Positions 10,387 to 26,778 of a stretch of DNA of 64,000 nucleotides are shown here, in pieces (the first letter of the stretch is position 1; every line of letters begins with the position of its first letter). Both the position numbers and the translations under genes were made by a program. The stretch lies in IMG/VR virus record IMGVR_UViG_3300044615_001997; one strand, 5' to 3'. Below the pieces are notes generated by a model. It searched no databases. It had not been told where the DNA came from and saw only the letters and a program-made list of their open reading frames with translations. Source of the stretch: a virus.

Positions 10387-13300
10387 ATGTCTGCATACGA
10401 ATATTTAACAGTAAATAGTTTGACTACTTATCCGTTTAGAGACGGTAGAGCTGTTAATTCTATTCAACCTATAGATGCGGATGTTTTTTTAGACATTCTT
10501 TTTGTTGTTTATGACCCGACGATAAAACGTCCTTACATAAAACAAATAAAGTCTGAAGACGGAGGAGTGTCTATAGATTTTCATGATGTAGACGGAGATC
10601 TTAAAATTTTTACAGTTGAAATACCTTCGGCTGAATTTGTAAGTCATTATAAAAATTTTGATAAATCTTTTTTTGGATATATACCGAATGAATATAGGCC
10701 TAAGGCTGCAGTTAAATTAGTGTTTGGTCAGGGTATTTCTAAGATAGCAGATGTTCAATCTACCGTCGTATATACTCCCGATGAAACAGAGTTATCGCCA
10801 TCAGCAGTACAATATTCTGTCCCAGAGGTTTCTACTTTAGAGTTTGAGTCTTGGTTCCCGGACTTTGATAGTAAGAACTATAATCCTAGCGCAGGGCAGG
10901 ATATAATTTCTGTAAAAACTTATTTAAGGGAAGAAGAAGTTAAAATGCGTTATGGGTTTAATAACGTATTTAATTACTTAGCTCCGAGAACAATGTTTTT
11001 AGACGTAGCTAGGGGAGCTGGGCTGGGGCTGTACGACCCATGCGATAATATCCCACCGCACGATTTAATCACTAGAATAAATCAAGTTGAACCTGACCCA
11101 TCAGGTAATATTTATTTCAAAGTATCAGATTGTCATTCATTAAGATTGTTGACTGACGATGAGCGAAACAGCGCATTGGAAAGAATTTTGGCTGACGGTA
11201 CTGACTACGTTAATTTTAATGTTAAACATTATTTAAAATTTTGGGATCAACTACCTTATCAAAACTATAATGAAACTATTTCACCTAACGGAAAAAACGT
11301 TAATATTTTGGGGGACGGTCAAAACGGCACAATTAATTCTATTAATCATGGATTTGTTTTAGAAAATCACTGTAAACCTAAATGTCCTCATGAAAATTTA
11401 AATGCTTTTGCTGAATATTTAAACCGAGTAAAAGATGGAGTATCTGAACTTTTTAAAGTGGTTGAAAACCCTATTGAGACTTGCGGTTACGCCACTATCA
11501 ATGGAGCTATTTTAACAGCTACTAGTTTTTGTGACCAAAATATAATAAATTCTAATTGGCTCGAAGCTCCTCTGTGTAATCAAGGATTTAAAAAATATTT
11601 TCATGAAGGTAGAAAAATTAAAATTCGTTATAATAATGCTACTTTTTATAATCCTGAAATAGTGGAAGTAATCGAAGGTCAAAACGGTTTAAACACCCAG
11701 ATTGTGTTAAACCAAGAACTTCCAGATTTTCTACCAGGAGAACAGTATTTATTTAAAGTTTTAGACTTTGGTTTAGTTAATAAATTAAATTTTGAAATCA
11801 TTAAACATAATAATGCATTAATAACCACAAACTCACCATATATTGAGTTTAACTATGGTACTGTAGAGGCATTTAATAATGATGATGAATATGTTACATT
11901 TATAACAACAGTTACCGTTGTATATAATCCAAGTGAAGAAGAAATAACTGTCGATTTTACTTCTGCAGTAAACGATATAACTACCTTAATAGATACTTCG
12001 GTTAAGGTAAAATATCCCGACGGTGAAATACGTTACGAAGAAACGGAAGCGGTGGTACCTTGTAAGGGTTATGCTATTTGGGAAGCTATTTTTTATGTTC
12101 CTTGTAGTCCTGAGCTTCCCGCACCTCCAAATGAAGGACATGTTATAATTTCAGTGGTAAATCGCAGCACGGGAGAAATTTTAGAGAATGCTCCAAAAGA
12201 AGTAAAATTAAATAGTGCTAATTGTGTTAACATTGATATCAAGACAATACGAACCTCAGCTAAAGAAAACGATTTATTTAAATTTAACATAGTAAAAGCT
12301 TTAAATTTAAGTGATGTTGCAAACATATCTTTTGCGGGAAATATTCCTGCTTGGTTGAATAGAGACACTTCTTCTACTGGTGCAGTTATTCCAGGTATTG
12401 AAGATAATGAAGGATACCACCTTTGGGGGACACCAACGGCAAATAATCAAGGAATTTTAAATGAAGAGTTTTCTATAGATATAACGATAACTGCTTCTGG
12501 TGTGTTTAGAACAACATTATTTTTAAGCTATATCGCAAAACCTAGAATAATTTCACATACAAATGGACAAATTATAGAAATAAACCCTCCAGATACATTC
12601 ACTAGAACTTACACACAAGGATCACCGTTAATTAGAATAAATGCAACCAACACCCCAATTGATTATAGATTTGAATCTGCGATACCTGGTTTTGGTCAAG
12701 CTGGCGCAAATTCTAATAAATTTATAGGTAGATATGGGTATAATCCAACATTTGTTTTTCCAATAACTTATCCAGTTAGACTGTTTGCCATAAATAGTGC
12801 ATCTTCTGAGGAGGATGAACTGTATGTAGATATTTTTGTAAAAGTTTATAATGTTGGGCAGACAGCTTCAACAGCTTTTCAAGATATTGCATATTGTTTC
12901 ACTATTCCAAACCCAGATTCAGCAGCACTAACATTAATTTCTACACTACCTTTATGGTTAAATTTTGATAGAAATGCTGCCGAGTGTAATTTGAGCGGAT
13001 TAAATAGTTCAAATATTTCTGTTATTGAGCGCGTGGTTATTCGATACGATTATGCCAATGGCTTTGAAAATAGAGAGTATTCGATAGGCTACAGGGCACG
13101 CCCTGTTATAACTTACCCACCCGAGCAAGTTGGAAACAATATTTTCACATTAGAGTTACGACCCCCAGACTACACAGTTTCAGGGCTTTCTAAAGTTTAT
13201 AACGAGCAAAATCCTTTAATTAGTGTAAAAATTTTAGATGCCTCTAGTACCGGATTAGTTTACTCAGCCGAAGGACTACCTACAGGCTTAGAAATAAATG

Positions 13301-16300
13301 AATCTGGTAAGATTATAGGACAAATAGATGAGTCGGTTATTCCTGGAGATTATCTCATAACCTTAAGAGTGGCTGATCCGGCTTTTTCCGGAACATTAGG
13401 AATAGCGGTACGACAGATCAAATTGATTTTAATTGCCGATGAAAAATTGTTTATAGCTAGAGAAAACTCTAATTTTTGTTTAAAGTTTACTGAATTAGCT
13501 TCTGCATCTAGTTATACAGTAAAAGATTGGTTAGATGGAAAACCAACTTGGCTGACTGAAGCTAATAGAGTTGGAGCAGCTTGTCATTTAACTAATTCGG
13601 ATAATTTGAAGCCGAGCGGTGACTTAAGTAAAGACTATAGATTTACATTGGCGTACATCACAGCAACTAATCCACCCATACAGTTAGAAGTGAACTATCT
13701 TTTAAGGTATATAGCCAAACCAAGAATATTGTATCCACAAAATGGAGAAGTTTTTCAAATAGCTTCCGAAGATTTATCAGAGGTGGTATTTACTGAAGAA
13801 AATCCATTACTGTCTTTTGAAGTAGTCAATGATCCCACTAATTATGAAATAACTGGACTGCCATCAGGATTAAGTTTGGTAAATGGAAAAATTGTGGGAG
13901 CTGCTACAAACGCTAATCCTGTAGGAGATTATAATGTTACTTTGTATGCTAGCAATACAGCAGGTGTTTCTAGTATTAGTATAAAAATTAGCATAAAAAA
14001 TATCACTATTCAAAGAGCTTTTCAGCTTGATGCATTTTGTTATAAAATCACCGGAATTTCAAACGCACTATACTATTCTTTAGAGGGCGATAAACCAAAT
14101 TGGTTAACCTTCAATCCAGCTTCAAATGCTGTTTGCCCTGTAGGAAATTTATATGGAACACCTCCCATCAGCGCAAATCAAAGTGCATCATATGATTTAA
14201 TATTGGTAGCACACAGAGGTAGTGGGGAATTAAGACAAAGCTTTAAACTAGAATATTATGCTAGACCAAATATAACTTATCCTTTACCAGACACCGTTTT
14301 TACAATTTCACCACCAGACTATAATAACCTTTTATTCACAAGCACAAATCCACTATTCAAAATAGAGGCAGATAATAACCCTACTTCTTATAGGGTAAAT
14401 GGTTTTCCTGAAAGAACTTTTCGCGTAGACGGTAATGGTAATATTATAGGCAGTTCTGGTGCCACCATAACAGACACACAAATACCAGTACAGCTTTATG
14501 CTCGCAATGAGGCAGGTGAATCTACTCCTGTCAGAATCTTTATAGTTATTACAAACCAGATTAACACAATTACTTTTAATTATACAGCAGCTACACCTTG
14601 TGCTACTGGAGCAAAATATAAATTTGAACTCGAGGATCAACCTGAAAGCATCACATTAGTAGGGCATCCAACTTGGATAACATTTAACCCGAGTTTAACA
14701 ACCGATTGTAATTTAACTTTCGGCAATAATAGACCTGTTTTAACTACATCACAAACGATACCATTAACTCTTACTAGAAATTATCGTGGAGGCAATACCA
14801 AAGAAACATTTAATTTATTAATCACCACAATACCAATTATAACTAATCCAATAAACACAACTTTACCGACAAACAGAATACGTTATGTTATATCGCAGCC
14901 AGATTTTAATAATAGAATTTATTCTGTACAGTCACCACTTTTAACAATTACTGCCACAAATTCTCCAACAAACATAACAGCTTCAGGATTACCATCAAGT
15001 TTAAGTGTAGTAACTTCTGGGCCTGATATAGGCAAAGTAATAAGTGTCAATCAAAGTATTCCAGTATCTGAATTAGGCTTATTCATAGTAACCGCCACAG
15101 CTTCTAATGGGGCAGGTAGTTCTATGACAGTTGTTTTTGAGATCGAGGCTAAAAACGAAATAATAGAAATATCCACACGTCAAGGCGAGGCCATCAATAA
15201 TGAATTTTGTAAACTTATTACAAGGGACAGAGCAACATCTTATTCTATTGTAGCCGGAACATTATTGAATGGTTTAAATTTTTCAGGCTCTACAGATGCA
15301 GGCTGTAACTTTTTTGGAGTACCTTCGGGAGGTAATGACGAACTATCTATTTTAGATGTGAGAAGTAATTATGTAGGAGGATTTTCAACTTTTAGAATAA
15401 GATTTTCACATATAAATAAACCCAGCATTGTTAGATTTACGAGAAACGGCAATACTATTATAGATGACGCTTTATCTGTTTTACCTGGTGTTTACGTGGG
15501 CACGACTTTTACGGAAGAACTACCACTATTTTCAATAGATACTACAGGAAATCCTACCAGTTTTTATGCTGAAGGTTTCCCGCAAAATTCAACTTTATCT
15601 ATAAGCTGTAATGGTAAAGTTATAGGAACTATTAATCAAGCCGCTGCAGGTAAATATACTGTGATAATAACAGCTGTAAATGAGGCAGGCGAATCAGAAA
15701 AAAGAACAATATATTTAGACTTTTCTCAAGCAGTTCCAGTAATCACGTGGGAAAATCCTGACGATATTACACATCCAACCCCGCTTAATTCTATAGATCA
15801 TTTAAACGCTACAGCTAATGTTCCTGGGTCATTTGCATATTTACCACCAGCAGGCAACATTCTTTCTGCCAGTACGCAGCCAAGGGTGCTTACAGTTACG
15901 TTTACACCTACAGATCAAATTACTTACGCTACAGTAGCCAAATCCGTAACGATACGAGTTTTCAAGGCAACTCCCACAATAACGTGGAACACTCCATCAG
16001 CTATAAGTTACTATACCGCATTAACTGCAGCACAATTAAACGCAACGGCAAACATAGCAGGTACATTTGTATATAGTCCGGGGTTAGGACACATATTTAA
16101 TGCTGGGACGCATTCTATAACAGTAACATTTACACCTGTAGATACTACAAATTATAATTCTGCGACAAGGCAGACGGAATTAGTAGTTAACAAAATTACT
16201 GTTACCCCGAGCAATATCTACTGGTCTACTCCATCAAGTATTGTCTATGGTGTTGCTTTGAGCGGTACACAATTGAATGCGTTAGCTAGAATCAGTTCTA

Positions 16301-19200
16301 CTGATGCCACATCACCAGCAATACCCAGTAATTCAAGTTCTTATGTTTATTCTCCTGTTCTCGGAACAGTTTTGGCGGTGGGAACCCATAATTTAACTGT
16401 GACATTTGTTAGCAGCGATTCTACCAATTTTACTGTTACCCCCGTACAAAAAGTTGTAACAATTTCTGTGGTGGCTCAAGCGCCACCCATCACTTGGAAT
16501 ACACCAGCAGCCATTACCTATGGCACCCTGCTTAGTAGTACTCAATTAAACGCAACCAGTACCATAGCAGGATTAACTTATACTTATACTCCTACATTCG
16601 GAGCATTATTGAATGCAGGAACACGAACACTATCTCTCACGGTTTCAGGAAACCCAAACTACGCTTCAACTACCGTGACGAGAGAAATTTTAGTAAATAA
16701 AGCAGCTTCTTCCATTACATTTACATCTCCAACCTCAGGGAGAGTAGGAGATCACATATTATTAACTACCGAGAAAACAGGTTCAACCAGTCCGGTTGTT
16801 TATAGCTCGGCTTCTACAGCTATTATAAATATTATTAATGTAAATAGGGCTAATTTGTTAACTGCAGGAACGGCTTCGGTAACAGCTCAAGTCGAGGAAG
16901 ATGCCAACTTTTTAGCCGCAGCAAGATCTCAAAACATCACCATCACTCGTGGTCTTAGTACTGTAACTATAACTTCCACAAATTCTACTAAAGTAGGAAA
17001 TACATTTACTTTAGCTGCTACAGCCACCGGATCTACAGGCCAAATATCTTTTAGTAGTAGTAACGCTAATTTGTTGAGTATAACTGGAGGTTCTATCGCA
17101 ACTGCTCTTGGGTCTGGGCAAGTCACACTCACTGCCTCTGTGGCTGCAACCGCAAATTACGATTCTGGCAGCAGTACACAAACTATAACAATCGCTAAAG
17201 GTGATTCAAACATTGCCTCGATAAATATGGTAAATCTTTTCCAGGGAGAAACCTCAACAATCACAACACAAAGAACAGGCTCCACCGGCGCAATCACATA
17301 CACCAGCAGCAACCCCGCAGTCATAAGTATTTCTGGTAACATAGCTACATTTAATTCCGGAGGAACAGCTAATATCACAGCAACATTGGCGGAAGATAAT
17401 AATTATTTGGGCACCACTAGAACACAATCTTTCACAGTTACACCCAAATCAACAGTAACAATAACATGGTCAGGTGTAACAACTTTAACTTTAGGGCAAA
17501 CTGTGCAGGTTATACCTTTTTCAACTACCGCCCCAGCTTTAGCTGATTCTCTCATAACTGCAACAACCGCAGATTCTACAATTATAAGAGTTATAACTGT
17601 AGGTGGTATAGTAGGACCTGTACTAGAAGCAATAAAGCCAGGAACTACGCAAATAACGCTCAGAGTTCCAGGCACAATAGATAGACAAGAGGCTACTTTA
17701 ATTGTAGCCATGACAGTTCAAAAAATTTCCAGCACATTAACGATAAATAATTTAATTAATAATAATTTAACTGTTCCATTATCTAGCACCAGCTATTTCA
17801 TAGGATATTCTATTTCCCCAACATCCCACGTTTATGGTGGTACTGCCCCAGCATTTGATAATTTAACAAGTAGTGTTACCTCGGTTGCCACTCGCGACCC
17901 AAATAGTTCTTTTGGTCACGTTAATTTACTTTCTGTTGGAACTACCACAATTACATTTAATAGACCAACTAATACATTTTGGGAAGCTGTCTCTAGAAGT
18001 TTTACATTAACAGTAACCAAAGGTTCTTCTACGTTAAACATTACTGGGCCTACTTCCGCCAAAGTCGGGCAATCTGGAACAATAACGTTTACAAAAACAG
18101 GATCTACAGCAACTCCAGTTTTTACAGCTGCCAGCGGAACAGGATTAATTATAACAGGCAACGCCGTAAGCTATACAAAAGCAGGTTCCCAAACACTCAC
18201 AGGAACTTTAGCTGGGGACACTAACTATGATGGGATTACTTCAACAAGAACATTAAATGTTTCTAAGGGGGATACGTCTTTATCTTTTGAGTATTTTGTA
18301 AATAGTGTATGGACTGCGACTAAACCCACCTCTGTCCTTCCAGGTCAAAGCTTGAGAATTAGACGAGTTGTCTCAGGCTCTACGGGTACAGTTACTTTAA
18401 CCGCCACACCCAGCGAAAACTTAGGAGCAACATCTGAATGCGTTGGAAGTAATTCAGGTGTTTGTGAAGCCGTAATCGTATTTAACAACACATCTCTAGG
18501 CGTTCAAACTATTACTTTAAGCGTTGCTACAGATACAAATTATAATGCAGCAACAGTTACAACAAACATAACAATACAAAAAGGAAGTTCCACATTAACT
18601 GTAGGAACTCCCAATAGCTTAACTTATGGCACACCAGTAGCTCTCAGCAATATTCAATTAACTAGAACAGGTACTACTGGAGCACCAGTATTCAGTACCA
18701 ATGACAGTAACATACAATTTACACAGCAAGGATTAACTTTTTCTTCAGTCAATACGTTGAGTAATCCCGCACCGAACCCTGGGTCTGGAACATACAGTGT
18801 TACGTTAGCTGCAGATGACCAGTATAATTCTATTACAGCCAGTAAAACAGTGACATTACTTAAAGGAACACCGACTTTCACTTTTGAGTATAGTGCAGTA
18901 ATTTCTGGAGGCGCTTCATTCACATGTGCTACGCCTATGACTAACGTCAAACCTAATATCCAGGCAGGAGCCCGTAGTGTGCTTGTTAGAATTAATCCGA
19001 ATATGCAGCCTAATCAATTCGCAACTTTCTCTTTCTCTGCGACTGGTGGAACAGCTCAACCGATACCTCTAGCTTGTAATTTTTATAACTTCTTGTATAC
19101 CTCCCCGCAAACAACAGGGCAAGTAACGGTAACGATAAATTATTCGGGAGATGGCAACACTAACGCAACTTCAACTACTATAACTTTTAATATCGTTTAA
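10387..19200 (+). CDS. giant Ig-like repeat tail fibre/adhesin (paralog 2)
   Basis: 2937 aa. Shared paralog N-terminus, then GLP.GL....G.I.G repeats, four ITW.TP..I.Y...L...QLNA repeats and Thr/Ser-rich Ig-like repeats. Confidence 0.7.
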   Translation: MSAYEYLTVNSLTTYPFRDGRAVNSIQPIDADVFLDILFVVYDPTIKRPYIKQIKSEDGGVSIDFHDVDGDLKIFTVEIPSAEFVSHYKNFDKSFFGYIPNEYRPKAAVKLVFGQGISKIADVQSTVVYTPDETELSPSAVQYSVPEVSTLEFESWFPDFDSKNYNPSAGQDIISVKTYLREEEVKMRYGFNNVFNYLAPRTMFLDVARGAGLGLYDPCDNIPPHDLITRINQVEPDPSGNIYFKVSDCHSLRLLTDDERNSALERILADGTDYVNFNVKHYLKFWDQLPYQNYNETISPNGKNVNILGDGQNGTINSINHGFVLENHCKPKCPHENLNAFAEYLNRVKDGVSELFKVVENPIETCGYATINGAILTATSFCDQNIINSNWLEAPLCNQGFKKYFHEGRKIKIRYNNATFYNPEIVEVIEGQNGLNTQIVLNQELPDFLPGEQYLFKVLDFGLVNKLNFEIIKHNNALITTNSPYIEFNYGTVEAFNNDDEYVTFITTVTVVYNPSEEEITVDFTSAVNDITTLIDTSVKVKYPDGEIRYEETEAVVPCKGYAIWEAIFYVPCSPELPAPPNEGHVIISVVNRSTGEILENAPKEVKLNSANCVNIDIKTIRTSAKENDLFKFNIVKALNLSDVANISFAGNIPAWLNRDTSSTGAVIPGIEDNEGYHLWGTPTANNQGILNEEFSIDITITASGVFRTTLFLSYIAKPRIISHTNGQIIEINPPDTFTRTYTQGSPLIRINATNTPIDYRFESAIPGFGQAGANSNKFIGRYGYNPTFVFPITYPVRLFAINSASSEEDELYVDIFVKVYNVGQTASTAFQDIAYCFTIPNPDSAALTLISTLPLWLNFDRNAAECNLSGLNSSNISVIERVVIRYDYANGFENREYSIGYRARPVITYPPEQVGNNIFTLELRPPDYTVSGLSKVYNEQNPLISVKILDASSTGLVYSAEGLPTGLEINESGKIIGQIDESVIPGDYLITLRVADPAFSGTLGIAVRQIKLILIADEKLFIARENSNFCLKFTELASASSYTVKDWLDGKPTWLTEANRVGAACHLTNSDNLKPSGDLSKDYRFTLAYITATNPPIQLEVNYLLRYIAKPRILYPQNGEVFQIASEDLSEVVFTEENPLLSFEVVNDPTNYEITGLPSGLSLVNGKIVGAATNANPVGDYNVTLYASNTAGVSSISIKISIKNITIQRAFQLDAFCYKITGISNALYYSLEGDKPNWLTFNPASNAVCPVGNLYGTPPISANQSASYDLILVAHRGSGELRQSFKLEYYARPNITYPLPDTVFTISPPDYNNLLFTSTNPLFKIEADNNPTSYRVNGFPERTFRVDGNGNIIGSSGATITDTQIPVQLYARNEAGESTPVRIFIVITNQINTITFNYTAATPCATGAKYKFELEDQPESITLVGHPTWITFNPSLTTDCNLTFGNNRPVLTTSQTIPLTLTRNYRGGNTKETFNLLITTIPIITNPINTTLPTNRIRYVISQPDFNNRIYSVQSPLLTITATNSPTNITASGLPSSLSVVTSGPDIGKVISVNQSIPVSELGLFIVTATASNGAGSSMTVVFEIEAKNEIIEISTRQGEAINNEFCKLITRDRATSYSIVAGTLLNGLNFSGSTDAGCNFFGVPSGGNDELSILDVRSNYVGGFSTFRIRFSHINKPSIVRFTRNGNTIIDDALSVLPGVYVGTTFTEELPLFSIDTTGNPTSFYAEGFPQNSTLSISCNGKVIGTINQAAAGKYTVIITAVNEAGESEKRTIYLDFSQAVPVITWENPDDITHPTPLNSIDHLNATANVPGSFAYLPPAGNILSASTQPRVLTVTFTPTDQITYATVAKSVTIRVFKATPTITWNTPSAISYYTALTAAQLNATANIAGTFVYSPGLGHIFNAGTHSITVTFTPVDTTNYNSATRQTELVVNKITVTPSNIYWSTPSSIVYGVALSGTQLNALARISSTDATSPAIPSNSSSYVYSPVLGTVLAVGTHNLTVTFVSSDSTNFTVTPVQKVVTISVVAQAPPITWNTPAAITYGTLLSSTQLNATSTIAGLTYTYTPTFGALLNAGTRTLSLTVSGNPNYASTTVTREILVNKAASSITFTSPTSGRVGDHILLTTEKTGSTSPVVYSSASTAIINIINVNRANLLTAGTASVTAQVEEDANFLAAARSQNITITRGLSTVTITSTNSTKVGNTFTLAATATGSTGQISFSSSNANLLSITGGSIATALGSGQVTLTASVAATANYDSGSSTQTITIAKGDSNIASINMVNLFQGETSTITTQRTGSTGAITYTSSNPAVISISGNIATFNSGGTANITATLAEDNNYLGTTRTQSFTVTPKSTVTITWSGVTTLTLGQTVQVIPFSTTAPALADSLITATTADSTIIRVITVGGIVGPVLEAIKPGTTQITLRVPGTIDRQEATLIVAMTVQKISSTLTINNLINNNLTVPLSSTSYFIGYSISPTSHVYGGTAPAFDNLTSSVTSVATRDPNSSFGHVNLLSVGTTTITFNRPTNTFWEAVSRSFTLTVTKGSSTLNITGPTSAKVGQSGTITFTKTGSTATPVFTAASGTGLIITGNAVSYTKAGSQTLTGTLAGDTNYDGITSTRTLNVSKGDTSLSFEYFVNSVWTATKPTSVLPGQSLRIRRVVSGSTGTVTLTATPSENLGATSECVGSNSGVCEAVIVFNNTSLGVQTITLSVATDTNYNAATVTTNITIQKGSSTLTVGTPNSLTYGTPVALSNIQLTRTGTTGAPVFSTNDSNIQFTQQGLTFSSVNTLSNPAPNPGSGTYSVTLAADDQYNSITASKTVTLLKGTPTFTFEYSAVISGGASFTCATPMTNVKPNIQAGARSVLVRINPNMQPNQFATFSFSATGGTAQPIPLACNFYNFLYTSPQTTGQVTVTINYSGDGNTNATSTTITFNIV

Positions 19201-22561: not shown

Positions 22562-23200
22562 ATGTCTGAACAAACCCCATTCTATTCAAATACTGAAGAC
22601 GGTAAAACTGTTCCTGTGAATTTAACTGCCTTTCACGGGATTCAAACCGTTAAAAAAAGTTTATTGGTGGGAAGAAAAGTAGAACCTGCAGATTTTTTTA
22701 TTTCTTCTACAGCAGGCTTTGGGTTTCCAGGTATACCGTTTGTTCCCGGGGAAGCAAACCCAGCTAATTTTTGCCAAGGGGAAGATGTGATATTCGATGC
22801 GTTTCTGTATTACCAAGGCGAAGCCGTAACTCAAAATGATTACGATATATTAGTGCAAGTAAAGTCTTCTTTGCGTAGTCCCACCGCATTTTGGGTAGGA
22901 GAAATTCAGAACGGCGTCTACCCTGAAGAAAATCCAGGTTATTACACGATATGGCTGCCTGCAGAGAAAACAATGACGTTGTTTGCTGGTTCTTACAATT
23001 TAAATGTATTTTTATCTCAACAGGTAGGTAAGGGTTCAGGACCTCACGATAGAAAAATTTCTCTAATCGATATTGCTTTTAATATTGAGTATTGTGGCGG
23101 AAGTGAAAATCCTGAAAATGTGAGACTGACTGGAGATTTACCTCATAGAGCTTCTATAAAAAGAACCTGGCCTAATGCTCCCGACATTATACAGGGTTAA
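22562..23200 (+). CDS. hypothetical protein, possibly structural beta-sandwich
   Basis: Last gene of the structural block. ATG 22562 preferred over the upstream near-cognate start. Confidence 0.5.
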   Translation: MSEQTPFYSNTEDGKTVPVNLTAFHGIQTVKKSLLVGRKVEPADFFISSTAGFGFPGIPFVPGEANPANFCQGEDVIFDAFLYYQGEAVTQNDYDILVQVKSSLRSPTAFWVGEIQNGVYPEENPGYYTIWLPAEKTMTLFAGSYNLNVFLSQQVGKGSGPHDRKISLIDIAFNIEYCGGSENPENVRLTGDLPHRASIKRTWPNAPDIIQG

Positions 23201-23236
23201 CCCCCAAATATTAATAGTTAATTTTTTTGGTATAAT
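23198..23236 (+). promoter_or_regulatory. putative promoter, extended -10 TGGTATAAT with upstream TAACCCCC box
   Basis: TATAAT at 23231-23236 preceded by TGn. A second copy with the same spacing lies at 24250-24288. Confidence 0.5.
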
Positions 23237-23310: not shown

Positions 23311-23829
23311 ATGAAAGCGGTAATAAATAAATGCCATGGCGGGTTTAATCTTTCTCCTAAGGCGATAAAAAAATACTGTGAATTAAAAGGCATGCCTTGT
23401 TTTTTATTTTCTTATGACTACGCTCAAAATAAACATGTTTTAATTGATGAAGAAAAAGCAGAGCAACTAGGTTTTTGGGTGGCTTATAAGGTGGAAAATC
23501 CTGATGAATTAATAAACTTTGTACATCCAGAAGAGCAACCACCGGAAGGTTTATTTGGTGATGGCTTAGAGCAATGGAATGCGTTCCAACTCAGTAAAGC
23601 TGTAGAAGCCACTATTCAAAATAATGAAAATTTAAAAAATTCTGTAATTGCTCCAGGAAATAATCGAGCAGAGATTGAATTAATACAAACTGTTGAAGAG
23701 TTAGGGTTAGAGGCTTCTGGAAACTTCAGTAATTTGGTAGTTATAGAAATTCCTGACGACATAGAGTGGTTTGTAGTAAGTAGTGGTGGTAAAGAACACA
23801 TCGCAGAAAAGCATAGAATATGGGAATAA
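23311..23829 (+). CDS. conserved phage hypothetical protein
   Basis: MKAVINKCHGGFNLS...VEELG..ASG..S.L.VIEIPDDIEW...E.IAEKHR pattern, which I recall as common in phages. Confidence 0.7.
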   Translation: MKAVINKCHGGFNLSPKAIKKYCELKGMPCFLFSYDYAQNKHVLIDEEKAEQLGFWVAYKVENPDELINFVHPEEQPPEGLFGDGLEQWNAFQLSKAVEATIQNNENLKNSVIAPGNNRAEIELIQTVEELGLEASGNFSNLVVIEIPDDIEWFVVSSGGKEHIAEKHRIWE

Positions 23830-23830
23830 G

Positions 23831-24025
23831 ATGATAAAATTTATATTTATTTTATTTTTATTTTTTAGTTTTTTAATCTCTATAGTTTCTTTAAACTGTA
23901 AAATTAATAAACTTACGTTAGCTACAGAAAAATCGAGAAATGAATTAACTGTGTTAAATAATCAATTAAAAGAAAGTAATGTTTTAATTGGTGAAATTGA
24001 CACTGCTTTAGAGCTGCCAGAATAA
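23831..24025 (+). CDS. small membrane-anchored coiled-coil protein
   Basis: ATG 23831. Hydrophobic MIKFIFILFLFFSFLISIV followed by a heptad-like tail. Confidence 0.5.
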   Translation: MIKFIFILFLFFSFLISIVSLNCKINKLTLATEKSRNELTVLNNQLKESNVLIGEIDTALELPE

Positions 24026-24028
24026 CCG

Positions 24029-24265
24029 ATGCATATGGAATTAAATACTCCTATCGACTCTGAAAGTATCAGACAAAAGAACAAGCTTTCGAGAGAAAAT
24101 GCTCAACTACATATATTAGCTGAGGATATGGCTAGAGTGTTAAGGAGGTGGCTTGATGACTCCAACATGAAATACTTCTGGACGAGTGAAGATAAAGAAG
24201 CTCTAAATGCCTATGATAGATTTAAAGAAGATGTTATTTGGAAACAATATAACCCCCCCAGTTAA
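24029..24265 (+). CDS. hypothetical protein
   Basis: 78-aa ORF in an operon arrangement. Confidence 0.55.
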   Translation: MHMELNTPIDSESIRQKNKLSRENAQLHILAEDMARVLRRWLDDSNMKYFWTSEDKEALNAYDRFKEDVIWKQYNPPS

Positions 24266-24288
24266 TTGCTCCTATTTTTTGTTATAAT
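24250..24288 (+). promoter_or_regulatory. putative promoter, extended -10 TGTTATAAT with upstream TAACCCCC box
   Basis: TATAAT at 24283-24288, at the head of the non-coding region. Confidence 0.5.
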
Positions 24289-24418
24289 ACTATGCTGACG
24301 GTTTGTCGGTCTATTAATTGAAAATACTTTCTTAATAGACCTATTCTTAAATAGCAATATACTTTTTTTAAAATTTATTTTACTGGTTAATTTTTAATAA
24401 TTTTTAGCTGGCAGCTAT

Positions 24419-24612
24419 TGTTGCGCTCGGGTTATATATAACAAAGATCTATTATATATACGCTCAACGGGAATGACTCCCACCACATAAAGGAACAACT
24501 TACCTGGTTTAGTTGTATGGCGATAATCTGAAATGGTCCGCAGCTATTTCAGCAAACCGCTCGCTAGATAGTCGATGTGCGCAAATTGACTATATTAGAA
24601 CGTGGCGCAACA
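24419..24612 (+). ncRNA. putative multi-stem structured RNA (~195 nt)
   Basis: Closing helix TGTTGCGC/GCGCAACA encloses five hairpins, e.g. CTGAAATGG/CTATTTCAG, ATAGTCGAT/ATTGACTAT, ACAACT/AGTTGT. Confidence 0.5.
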
Positions 24613-24616
24613 CCCA

Positions 24617-24645
24617 TTGACTTTTAGTGTGTATTTATATATACT
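24617..24645 (+). promoter_or_regulatory. sigma70-type promoter
   Basis: TTGACT (24617-22), 17-nt spacer, TATACT (24640-45), immediately before the first hairpin of the large RNA. Confidence 0.7.
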
Positions 24646-24650
24646 AATAA

Positions 24651-25366
24651 TCTGGCCGTGTGCGGCCATAAGATAACCCCAGTAATGGGGACAAAGTGAA
24701 CTCTCATCACCGTGAGAGTTTGCGGGGATCTTCGATCCCTCTGAGCACACAAGGAGGTAATCATCTTTTCTGCCTGTTGAGGGTTAGAAAAGTTGCTCGT
24801 CGGTTGAGACCCGATGGGTGAGTGCGAAAGTACAATAAGGAAACCTTTAGCTGATATGCGAGCAACTGGACTGGTAATCCAGCAATCGCGTTTAGCAGCC
24901 TAGAAGTTGTCGCTAGAGCAATCTAGAGGCAACTACGAAACAGTGACGACCAGTCACAGGACTAGTAGCGCATCGATTCCCTCAAAAGGGGAGTTGGCGG
25001 AACCCGCAAGCACTAGTTCGGAAATCTCGGGTGAACATGACTTGTCTCGAAAGAGACTCATTAACCAAAAAGGAAAGCCTTGCGGCTTCTGCAGTGAAAG
25101 ATGACTTCGTCCCAAGTTACGCTTGGGGTTTGCTGGCTCCCTAAGGCCAGTATGATAGAGGTTAGGATAATCTTTGGATACCGTTGCTGGTATTGGAGGG
25201 TGCGTAGCCTTCACAGAGAGGAACTAGCGAACAACTGTGGTTGAAACCCTGACTCAGGGAAATTGAGTCGTCATTGCTGGGTACGTTGCAAAACAACGTG
25301 GATAAAACGGAGAATCAATATACTCCGTCAGAGACCAGTACTTATAGCTGTAATCTCAAGCTATAT
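24651..25366 (+). ncRNA. large structured ncRNA, GOLLD-like (~715 nt)
   Basis: No credible ORF, dense hairpins with GNRA loops (CCCCA-GTAA-TGGGG, GTCTC-GAAA-GAGAC, GTGC-GAAA-GTAC). The 3' part CATTG...GTGGATAAAACGGAGAATCAATATACTCCGT...GCTGTAATCTCAAGC resembles my recollection of the GOLLD 3' domain. Not verified with a covariance model. Confidence 0.6.
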
Positions 25367-25370
25367 AATT

Positions 25371-25655
25371 TTCTCGACTTGGCGAGTATAAATAGGATGT
25401 AAGCCAAGAGCGTTGCAGGTATGAGTATCTGCAGAATTCGGAGCGGTAGACCTTCTAGAGGTTACGGCTCCCTGGCCCAGACTTGAGTCACTTCAGGTCA
25501 AAAGTGTACTGAGGCACGTGAGTGAACCATACAACAGGTACATTGCCAGAACAAAAACGGGGGTGCTTCTTAATTTGTTGCCCGTATACTTTCAGGGAGG
25601 TGTGGAGATCAAAATCATTGATTACTCTTGTACGGAAAAATCTCGTACACCTCCC
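25371..25655 (+). ncRNA. putative structured RNA (boundaries uncertain)
   Basis: Stems CTTGGC/GCCAAG, GCAGGTA/TATCTGC, GAGC.GTA.ACCT/AGGTTAC.GCTC, ACGGG/CCCGT, and GGGAGGTGT/ACACCTCCC (25595-25655). Confidence 0.4.
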
Positions 25656-25661
25656 AAACTT

Positions 25662-25783
25662 TTGTAGGATATGCTGAGGGTTCTGGAGGATATGGTGGGG
25701 ATCATGGGCTCCAGCACGATAGGTTGCTGCCAGTCGTGGCATCGGTAAGCATATATAATTGAGAGTGATGCACTCACCTACAA
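25662..25783 (+). ncRNA. putative structured RNA module
   Basis: Closing helix TTGTAGG/CCTACAA. Inner stems ATATGCT/AGCATAT, TGGAG/CTCCA, CACGA/TCGTG, GAGTG/CACTC. Confidence 0.45.
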
Positions 25784-25788
25784 CTTAC

Positions 25789-25912
25789 TTTGAATGCGTG
25801 ACGAAAGTCTCGTTACGAATAGTGCTAAAAAATAACTCGCCCATAACTATACACCGACAGGATTAGGCGAAAGTCGGGGAAGCAATAATCCACGTTAGCA
25901 TACGCATTCAAA
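25789..25912 (+). ncRNA. putative structured RNA module
   Basis: 11-bp closing helix TTTGAATGCGT/ACGCATTCAAA. Inner TGCTAA/TTAGCA, GGATT/AATCC and two GAAA tetraloop hairpins. Confidence 0.5.
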
Positions 25913-26027
25913 AATTTGTTTTGGCTTACTGAGCTGCTGTGGTGAGCTCGGCAAGGAACCTACAAAGTTTCACAACAGTGAGTGCCACAGCACTTGTGAA
26001 ACTAGGAACCAGCCAAAACAAATTTTT
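25910..26027 (+). ncRNA. three-way-junction RNA with complementary (kissing) loops
   Basis: 17-bp perfect closing helix. Two hairpins whose loop regions GCTGTGG and CCACAGC are complementary. Confidence 0.6.
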
Positions 26028-26034
26028 AGCTATT

Positions 26035-26365
26035 TGAGGTTAGCCTCATAAGGTGCACGATGGCCGACTACCATCTAGTGAGATCCTACTCATGATTGAA
26101 GCCAGGTCGTTCTGGTAAAATGGGGCTGGTTACCGCAACCCGCTGACGGTCAGCGAGAGTCAGAAAGTTTAACTTTCTTCAGGCGAGGCGCGTTTATGTA
26201 TCTAGGACAGGCAAGATCAGTCGTGTCTGCATGATGGTACTGCGTCGTAGACCTTGAGACACGACAGCCGCAAGTTTCGAACGGGTAGCCTCCTCCGTTA
26301 ATGGGTGACTAGGGAACATGTGCGGCGGCGCATAGGACTCCAAAAGTAGAATCAATAAACCCGCC
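26035..26365 (+). ncRNA. putative structured RNA module(s)
   Basis: TGAGG/CCTCA, GATGG/CCATC, TGAAG/CTTCA. Closing helix GGCGcGTTTAT/ATAAACcCGCC (26187-26365) encloses GTCGTGTCT/AGACACGAC. Confidence 0.45.
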
Positions 26366-26407
26366 AAAAATTTTTGTGGTATCTAATACATACACACATA
26401 CCACTGA

Positions 26408-26447
26408 CCCAGCAGTGAAGCGACACAATCTGGGCACTTTTTTAGCT
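26408..26447 (+). terminator. possible terminator ending the RNA array
   Basis: CCCAG/CTGGG stem followed by ACTTTTTTAGCT. Confidence 0.35.
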
Positions 26448-26457
26448 ATTAAACATT

Positions 26458-26778
26458 ATGGACAACACAATATTCAATTATGGCGGAATTCCTGTAGTCA
26501 TTGACGTTTCATATGACTACGAGGAAGATTGTACAAAAGCCTGGCACGATTTGAATCATGCCGAAACAGGCGAAAATATCACAACTATCGATTGGTCACC
26601 TTATTCTATTCCTTCTAATGAGGAAGTTGAGTTATGGTTGGGATTAGGTGCCCCAGGGGGAGTTTATCGACAAGGAGAGCACTACGAGTCTCACCACAAC
26701 TTCAATTCCGAAGTACTCCAACTCGTTATAGAGGAAGAGGCTACCGGTAAAGAACCTACCTATATAATTAAAAGATAG
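26458..26778 (+). CDS. hypothetical protein
   Basis: 106-aa acidic ORF with an ATG in an A/T-rich context. Confidence 0.6.
   Translation: MDNTIFNYGGIPVVIDVSYDYEEDCTKAWHDLNHAETGENITTIDWSPYSIPSNEEVELWLGLGAPGGVYRQGEHYESHHNFNSEVLQLVIEEEATGKEPTYIIKR

Follow-up and report, generated by a model that had tools for sequence, protein, structure and literature searches.

What fills a gene-free block of about 2.2 kb in the genome of an uncultured phage? The block occupies positions 24266-26457 of the window, a stretch of 64,000 nucleotides (nt) that corresponds to bases 53631-117630 of a 121-kb IMG/VR virus record (IMGVR_UViG_3300044615_001997; ~62% complete). A sequence-only reading of the window had proposed an operon of back-to-back structured RNAs at this site, with a GOLLD-like RNA among them. 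Our comparative analysis points in the same direction. With a probability of roughly 0.7, the block is a single non-coding RNA operon, in which a Pistol ribozyme would give at least one built-in cut. Below, this phage (W) is the reference for all window coordinates, and L0xx denotes related or compared contigs.

A non-coding and strongly folded block

When open reading frames (ORFs) of at least 90 amino acids (aa) are considered on both strands, the largest gap in the window runs from 23830 to 26457 (2628 nt), against 567 nt for the runner-up. With ORFs of at least 60 aa, the top three gaps all fall within the block. This agrees with the earlier statement that it is the sole long ORF-free stretch. 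The block appears to be non-coding, because lineages of related phages differ by indels of 1, 2 and 6 nt within its largest chance ORFs, and because gene callers placed nothing there in L023, L026 and L027. In L040 (6443-7527) and L041 (5185-6269 and 6406-6905), annotated "genes" span 500-1085 nt over the GOLLD region with products of only 16-28 residues. These look like gene-calling artefacts on structured RNA.

The G+C content is 0.43-0.49 in the block versus 0.27-0.39 in its flanks, as had been noticed earlier. Extensive base pairing had also been claimed, and the shuffle check proposed with that claim bears it out. In 160-nt sliding windows compared with dinucleotide shuffles, the mean folding z was -1.82 for the + strand of the block and -1.08 for its - strand, compared with -0.61 for the coding flanks (Mann-Whitney p = 1.8e-4), and individual modules with closing helices had z = -2.6, -3.0 and -5.4. 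The + strand is favoured because G.U cells in the supported helices outnumber A.C cells by 125 to 24, although this count leans to the + strand, on which the structures were predicted. With that bias, the earlier remark that G-U pairs fit the + strand still stands.

ARAGORN found no transfer RNA (tRNA) in the 64-kb window and Rfam none in the block at E up to 5, in agreement with the earlier reading; the three tRNAs of the genome lie near the contig ends. Relaxed ARAGORN settings returned "tRNAs" in the block that we rejected, as they were low-scoring and inconsistent between lineages or lay inside GOLLD.

A conserved pair of GOLLD and Pistol

A blastn search of the block against 50,697 phage records gave no match. 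The IMG/VR loci L002-L022, found via the upstream phrog_16527 protein, held no RNA-block sequence and no match to the models of modules M0 or M3 described below. In four of these distant relatives (L002, L005, L008, L010), tRNA arrays stand downstream of the homologous phrog_16527 gene. The 106-aa protein encoded downstream of the block had no relatives among viral contigs. Exact scans for the junction between the GOLLD end and Pistol, and for the Pistol core of this clade, found none in viral contigs or genome contigs and gave no hint of a host. Searching a large protein collection with the flanking genes revealed closer relatives, namely seven further syntenic lineages: L023 (with L024 and L025), L026 (with L027), L028, L029 (with L030), L031, L040 (with L041 and L042) and L043. 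Together with W this makes eight, all from metagenomes. Five more contigs, L032-L036, come from other samples and are copies identical to this phage.

At the same site, a gene-free gap of 2.1-2.8 kb is found in every lineage, and in 8 of the 8 a GOLLD RNA (128-141 bits) is followed by a Pistol ribozyme (40-52 bits). The core of the block (W 24653-25783), comprising GOLLD, Pistol and the modules M1/M2 and M3, is present in all lineages at 75-91% identity, about as well conserved as the neighbouring protein genes. As far as their contigs reach, the eight lineages share one order of parts: promoter-like box, M0, GOLLD, Pistol, M1/M2 and M3. A seemingly short variant in L030 turned out to be a scaffold gap of 100 N instead of a deletion.

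The GOLLD RNA lies on the + strand. Its first hairpin, linker and 3' domain (24958-25362) match positions 1-416 of Rfam RF02032 from end to end without truncation (141.2 bits, E 1.1e-38), with the linker aligned to model positions ~64-136. This confirms the GOLLD-like RNA of the earlier reading, and seven relatives also show an untruncated match. The 5' domain (24653-24957, +) lies outside the coverage of the Rfam model. It shows 81-91% identity in all lineages, and among five lineages 15 of its 100 predicted pairs are compensated (both sides changed with pairing retained), a count for which no controls were run.

Like other GOLLD loci, this one combines a full-length first hairpin, linker and 3' domain with a more variable structured 5' domain of several hundred nt, and it is located in a phage genome, inside a cluster of stable-RNA genes. 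It differs from them in that the neighbours are undescribed structured modules instead of tRNAs, and in that a Pistol ribozyme follows the 3' end after 5-9 nt, or after a 57-aa ORF. GOLLD loci of phages and prophages were reportedly described by Weinberg in 2009. GOLLD is among the largest bacterial and phage RNAs, and the only hints of its function are its cage structure and its tRNA-adjacent habit. Electron cryo-microscopy showed a 14-mer RNA-only cage (PMC12286853), and by family membership the GOLLD RNA of this phage is expected to assemble in the same way. According to the literature, GOLLD occurs near tRNA islands and its 5' regions are variable; phage tRNA arrays holding GOLLD were reportedly described by Morgado (2020). 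In the searchable literature, GOLLD is not linked with any ribozyme or with a non-tRNA array.

The Pistol self-cleaving ribozyme (Rfam RF02679; 25372-25439, +) stands 9 nt beyond GOLLD, within the range of 5-9 nt seen in most lineages. Both the ribozyme and the structured stretch behind it (25439-25655) had been missed in the sequence-only reading. Its score of 47.4 bits exceeds the gathering cut-off of 34.5, as do the scores of the relatives (39.7-52.4) and of three unrelated metagenome contigs, L037-L039 (51.7-55.8). It shares with the described family the helices P1 and P3, with a putative P2, the pseudoknot between the P1 loop and the P2-P3 junction, the AUAAAUA linker, positions equivalent to the catalytic A and G, and the association with phages. 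P1 (CUCG/CGAG), the linker and the 5-base-pair (bp) pseudoknot (CUUGG/CCAAG) are identical in all lineages and in L037-L039, while P3 stays paired with six different sequences, that is, by compensated changes. P2 of W (GGAU/AUUC) pairs over 4 bp in the canonical register. Pistol ribozymes were reportedly described in 2015 by Weinberg and by Harris. Self-cleavage is likely, and the predicted cut is at the P3-P2 junction, at 25434/25435 ± 1 nt.

The surroundings of Pistol are distinctive as well. Unlike described examples, it always stands 3' of a stable RNA (GOLLD or tRNA-Met) or of a small ORF, and a hairpin always comes after it. In L028 and L040, it begins at the stop codon of the 57-aa ORF inserted behind GOLLD. 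In L037-L039, which carry the same subtype, it stands 13 nt behind tRNA-Met. A hairpin beginning with GGA follows Pistol in all lineages and in these three contigs. Since Pistol comes after GOLLD, the 57-aa ORF or tRNA-Met, it seems to mark the end of whatever lies upstream. The common rule suggested by these arrangements is that Pistol divides an upstream product from a downstream structured RNA.

In the three unrelated contigs (L037:2400-2930, L038:5120-5645 and L039:3590-4110, all on the - strand), Pistol is followed by the hairpin and then by ~130 nt of near-identical sequence, behind which stands a G+C-rich hairpin with its U-run. Judging from this layout, it looks like a small RNA freed by the ribozyme and bounded by a terminator.

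The 57-aa ORF between GOLLD and Pistol (L028:2637-2810, L040:7354-7527) is rich in lysine and arginine, and its stop codon abuts Pistol. The two versions share 81% identity, with mostly synonymous or third-position differences. Pfam gave no match for it, and the 121 kb of this phage contain no copy. The basic protein could be an RNA-binding partner of GOLLD.

Modules with conserved folds

The remainder of the block contains modules that we call M0-M6. For M0, M1/M2, M3 and M6, covariation was compared with 500 shuffles and with slid controls. In all four cases, the share of paired cells, the number of compensated cells and the covariation score were reached by 0 of the 500 shuffles, and the slid controls paired 30-50% of their cells.

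M0 (24418-24613, +), on the 5' side of GOLLD, is a multi-armed RNA of ~195 nt with a 12-bp closing helix. Across seven lineages, 89.5% of its cells are paired and 25 of its 53 pairs are compensated, above all shuffles and slid controls; the fold is retained and the sequence has diverged. These comparisons support a module that had been placed at 24419-24612. M0 is absent from Rfam, and a model built from it (R2) matched only this clade in the 0.5 Mb searched. M0 may stand as an RNA in its own right or belong to GOLLD as an additional 5' domain.

Directly after P2 of Pistol comes the M1 hairpin (25439-25473, +), with 4 of its 12 pairs compensated; the downstream product of cleavage would have it at its 5' end. 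In M2 (25474-25655, +), a branched domain (25474-25553) precedes two hairpins, one at 25560-25584 and a long one at 25595-25655, and 4-6 U come after the latter. In the joint alignment of M1 and M2 (A2, six lineages), 91.8% of the cells are paired and 15 of 59 pairs are compensated, above both controls. The long hairpin with its U-run (25595-25660) has a near-invariant 15-bp stem and a variable loop of ~30 nt, and the 4-6 U follow in every lineage. It could serve as an internal terminator or as a 3'-end stabiliser. This hairpin and the Pistol cut would delimit an RNA of ~225 nt. The U-run doubles as the 5' strand of the closing helix of the next module.

M3 (25661-25784, +) is a multi-branch RNA of 124 nt with an 8-bp closing helix, which corresponds closely to a module proposed earlier at 25662-25783. 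In the eight lineages 96.7% of its cells are paired and 4 of its 38 pairs are compensated. Since 7 of the 500 shuffles had at least as many compensated pairs, M3 is the weakest case among the modules. Like M0, it is absent from Rfam, and its model (R1) matched only this clade in the 0.5 Mb searched.

In W and L028, no other family of Rfam 15 was found for M0-M6 at E up to 5, and the other relatives gave none with E up to 0.01. Beyond GOLLD and Pistol, the block gave a single chance-level match, to an unrelated thermometer model (E = 4.1). The earlier reading had spoken of undescribed RNAs; with at least five modules supported by covariation and without an Rfam match even at E up to 5, this description holds. 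Minimum-energy folding of the 1-kb stretch behind Pistol was discarded, as it gave inconsistent domains, and comparative folding was used instead.

Cassette turnover behind M3

On the 3' side of M3, the lineages differ by whole modules, which are gained, lost and re-ordered. For instance, M4 (25789-25912, +) is a stem-closed module of 124 nt (z = -3.0) that occurs only in this phage, including its independent assembly L033. It is a clean insertion between M3 and M5, with breakpoints at the module ends, and is absent from 7 of the 7 other lineages. The module proposed earlier at these positions is thus upheld as a folded unit and a clean indel; being present only in this phage, it has no relatives for covariation. 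In the hairpin 25854-25877, one segment of the loop is complementary to 25837-25841 and another to 25886-25891, so that a double pseudoknot within 25837-25891 is possible. Three Logan contigs of the same phage from different runs (L035, L032 and L034) end inside M4, with ends at window positions 25859 and 25877. These ends may reflect presence/absence variation in the population, or just assembly difficulty.

M5 (25910-26027, +) is a three-way junction of 118 nt with a 17-bp closing helix (z = -5.4) and ends in TTTTTAGCT. It is present in W, L023, L026, L040 and L043, and in a diverged form in L028, where the closing helix co-varies. The tips of two hairpins are complementary, as CUGUGG/CCACAG in four lineages and as CUAUGG/CCAUAG in L028, and they are constant while the stems vary. 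The helix and loop changes in L028 support the module predicted earlier at the same coordinates. The loop-loop covariation is suggestive: it consists of one compensated position in one lineage and was read by eye, as MAFFT misaligned the first loop of L028. In its small size and complementary hairpin tips, M5 resembles RNAs that multimerise by kissing loops, such as phi29 pRNA and the manA RNA cages (bioRxiv 10.64898/2026.07.01.735769). It differs from them in that there is no similarity of sequence or model, and the complementarity of its tips could equally be intramolecular.

In M6 (26059-26269, +), two small hairpins (26059-26093) precede a branched domain (26105-26269). Of the cells of this domain, 98.0% are paired (alignment A6, four lineages), and 12 of its 61 pairs are compensated, above both controls. 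A closing helix at 26187-26365 had been proposed in the earlier reading. We rejected it, because L028 has its 5' strand without the 3' partner, and covariation backs 26105-26269 instead. The earlier count of at least five modules is correct, with this one boundary wrong.

Behind M6, a conserved 3' part begins with two hairpins (26286-26341, +) that show 89-97% identity and little covariation (alignment A7) and are absent from L028. Two near-invariant hairpins (26376-26447, +) follow, with a six-U run and TTTTTAGCT, 12 nt before the gene at 26458. The last 90-190 nt of the block are present in every lineage at 89-97% identity. The hairpins at 26376-26447 are probably the terminator of the operon, or else the leader of the next gene.

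Two extra cassettes occur in the relatives. X1 and X2 stand in opposite order in L023 and L029, and in L043 X2 lies between M6 and the 3' end. The turnover of cassettes behind M3 suggests accessory roles acting in trans.

A putative RNA operon

Transcription of the block would start at a promoter-like box (24250-24288, +), which begins right behind the stop codon of a 78-aa gene. It consists of a C-run, ~20 nt and an extended -10 element, TGTTATAAT. The box is kept in four of the four lineages whose contigs reach that far (W, L023, L026 and L028). A second box of the same type stands at 23197-23236, directly after a stop codon and before the gene at 23311; otherwise it is unique in the 121-kb genome. 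This second copy suggests a promoter class specific to the phage or its host, in an early-looking region.

The box is followed by a leader (24294-24413, +) with a hairpin (24294-24310), an A+U-rich stretch and a terminal TTTTTAGCT at 24401. Sequence conservation of the leader is poor, and the hairpin and the end motif are retained. Between M0 and GOLLD lies a spacer hairpin (24624-24647, +). All of the five lineages compared form it, four of them with a GNRA loop, while its sequence is replaced. A sigma-70-like box (24617-24645) overlaps the hairpin in W and L026. We considered this box as GOLLD's own promoter and rejected it as a conserved feature: it is missing in three of the five lineages (L023, L028, L030), each of which, like W and L026, has the hairpin at this site. 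Given its absence there, GOLLD probably lacks a promoter of its own.

The proposed + strand transcript would run through the leader, M0, the spacer hairpin, GOLLD (24653-25362), Pistol, M1/M2, M3, M4, M5 and M6, and would end at the two conserved hairpins and U-run near ~26445. Pistol would cut near its own 3' end, at ~25434/25435, so that the body of the ribozyme remains on the upstream RNA. The 5' product would comprise M0 to GOLLD with the ribozyme body attached and a 2',3'-cyclic phosphate end, and the 3' product would begin with a 5'-OH group, which four or five free bases separate from the stable M1 hairpin. We infer that the other modules are freed by RNases of the host. Pfam and PHROG scans of ~40 nearby proteins revealed no RNA ligase, RNase or RNA polymerase, and no second ribozyme was detected in the array beyond Pistol. 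M0-M6 would then be stem-closed, independently folding RNAs of undescribed classes, which appear to stand where tRNA arrays stand near GOLLD elsewhere and at the syntenic site in distant relatives. The earlier idea of an operon processed into discrete RNAs gains support from the single strand, from the promoter-like box in 4/4 reaching lineages and from Pistol, which provides one built-in processing site.

The 9-mer TTTTTAGCT occurs nine times in the window versus 2.4 expected by chance. Three copies on the + strand stand at boundaries of the block, at the end of the leader (24401-24409), of M5 (26023-26031) and of the block itself (26439-26447), each preceded by a hairpin. In L023, L026, L028, L029 and L031 it is found at the same three kinds of place, where different cassettes join. 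The 9-mer might serve as the tail of a terminator, as a site for an RNase or as a joint for recombination.

Several observations weigh against a single operon cut by Pistol. The GOLLD scores, 9 bits short in W (141.2) and 128-141 in the relatives, lie below the Rfam gathering cut-off of 150, which is a curation threshold rather than a structural feature; we treat the clade as a divergent GOLLD subgroup. The activity of Pistol is not assured, because its details deviate from the consensus. The GU at the scissile junction is modestly conserved and its two-nucleotide length strictly so (PMC4604425). With the terminal U.G pair of P3 open, the P3-P2 junction of W reads GA (25434-25435); in the Infernal register, which closes this pair, it is 1 nt long. 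In most relatives (lineages A-E) the junction reads AA. P2 is just 3-4 bp long, and its pairing in lineages A-E requires a shift of the register by 2 nt (UAGA/UCUG) and shows no covariation. The covariation samples comprise 4-8 related lineages and have modest statistical power, and related sequences can beat shuffles without any structure. With so few and such related lineages, the covariation figures support the folds, short of proof. Moreover, the hairpins with U-runs inside the array (24401, ~25660 and 26027) could stop transcription early. As there is no conserved internal promoter, modules past such a stop would need read-through. Finally, the other module boundaries carry no known cleavage signal.

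Alternative explanations

One alternative is that the block encodes an oversized GOLLD-type RNA, of which M0, and perhaps the modules behind Pistol, are peripheral domains, so that the Pistol cut would be a nick or trimming step at most. For M0 there are arguments in this direction. It stands beside GOLLD in every lineage whose contig extends there, joined to it only by the short hairpin kept in every lineage; the sigma-70-like box between them is absent in 3/5 lineages; and 5' regions of GOLLD are known to vary. Yet every module has a closing helix of its own, GOLLD is parted from Pistol and the rest by a protein gene in L028 and L040, and the gain, loss and re-ordering behind M3 ill fit the fixed domains of one particle. 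We consider this explanation unlikely. A different explanation might be that the stretch behind GOLLD is a structured leader or untranslated region, which controls the cluster of small genes from 26458 by attenuation or RNA stability and yields no trans-acting RNAs. The close distance of that gene to the last U-run, with no conserved promoter between them, would fit such a role, as would the recurring hairpins with U-runs along the array and the last 90-190 nt, which are the best conserved part (89-97%) with almost no covariation, as for a sequence-specific signal. However, 1 kb of covarying, stem-closed, cassette-like modules far exceeds the needs of known leaders, and the ribozyme would sever the leader from its promoter-proximal part. 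Moreover, in L023, L028 and L040 the downstream neighbour is an extra gene of 133-137 aa, and the modules are kept all the same. Control in cis is therefore a decidedly unlikely explanation of the stretch.

The folds might also be incidental to an element that acts as DNA, such as a replication origin, a packaging site or a recombination hotspot with inverted repeats, or to a decayed tRNA array. Some modules do have a negative z on the - strand too, the block sits between genome modules with recombination breakpoints, and tRNA arrays occupy the syntenic site in distant relatives. This is countered by two curated RNA families in mid-block, both on the + strand, by G.U pairs specific to the + strand that are common (125 vs 24 cells), and by compensatory changes that keep the pairing rather than the sequence. 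A decayed array is countered by the absence of anything tRNA-like according to ARAGORN or Rfam (E up to 5), with relaxed ARAGORN results being inconsistent. We regard both versions as highly improbable.

An extension of the RNA operon would be that the modules form a co-expressed kit around the GOLLD cage. Exchangeable, undescribed modules would then fill the place of the tRNAs found beside or inside GOLLD in other phages, as cargo, partners or decoys. The Pistol cut would free them from the cage RNA, and at least one of them, M5 with its co-varying complementary loops, would form a multimer by kissing loops. We hold this speculative picture to be unlikely. If true, phages would possess a family of machines made only of RNA, with RNA parts that can be swapped.

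Comparison with tRNA arrays

The proposed RNA operon is much like the tRNA arrays of phages, which also consist of back-to-back stem-closed RNAs in one orientation, with gaps of a few nt and variable presence between related phages, and which hold the equivalent genomic place in distant relatives. In contrast to these arrays, it contains no tRNA, and its modules of 120-330 nt lack a cloverleaf, so that processing by RNase P and RNase Z cannot be assumed. The locus shows that tRNA islands of phages can give way entirely to other stable RNAs.

Our results tie the 3' end of GOLLD to a self-cleaving ribozyme in eight lineages, which points to defined RNA ends. They also show that GOLLD is accompanied by a conserved set of structured RNAs, at least five in number, which have covariation support, are missing from Rfam and are candidates for RNA family databases. 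A turnover of RNA cassettes between phages that are otherwise collinear, as seen here, is what accessory or host-interaction functions would lead one to expect.

Other genes of the window

The window encodes tail-like proteins, a large terminase and a replication module (SbcC-like, helicase, DnaB-like, PolA-like and RecA-like proteins); most of its small genes lack a family assignment. A single ORF of 2937 aa occupies positions 10387-19200, with faint matches to Ig-like domains, and its versions in the relatives measure 3300-3500 aa. Its product is probably a giant tail or fibre protein.

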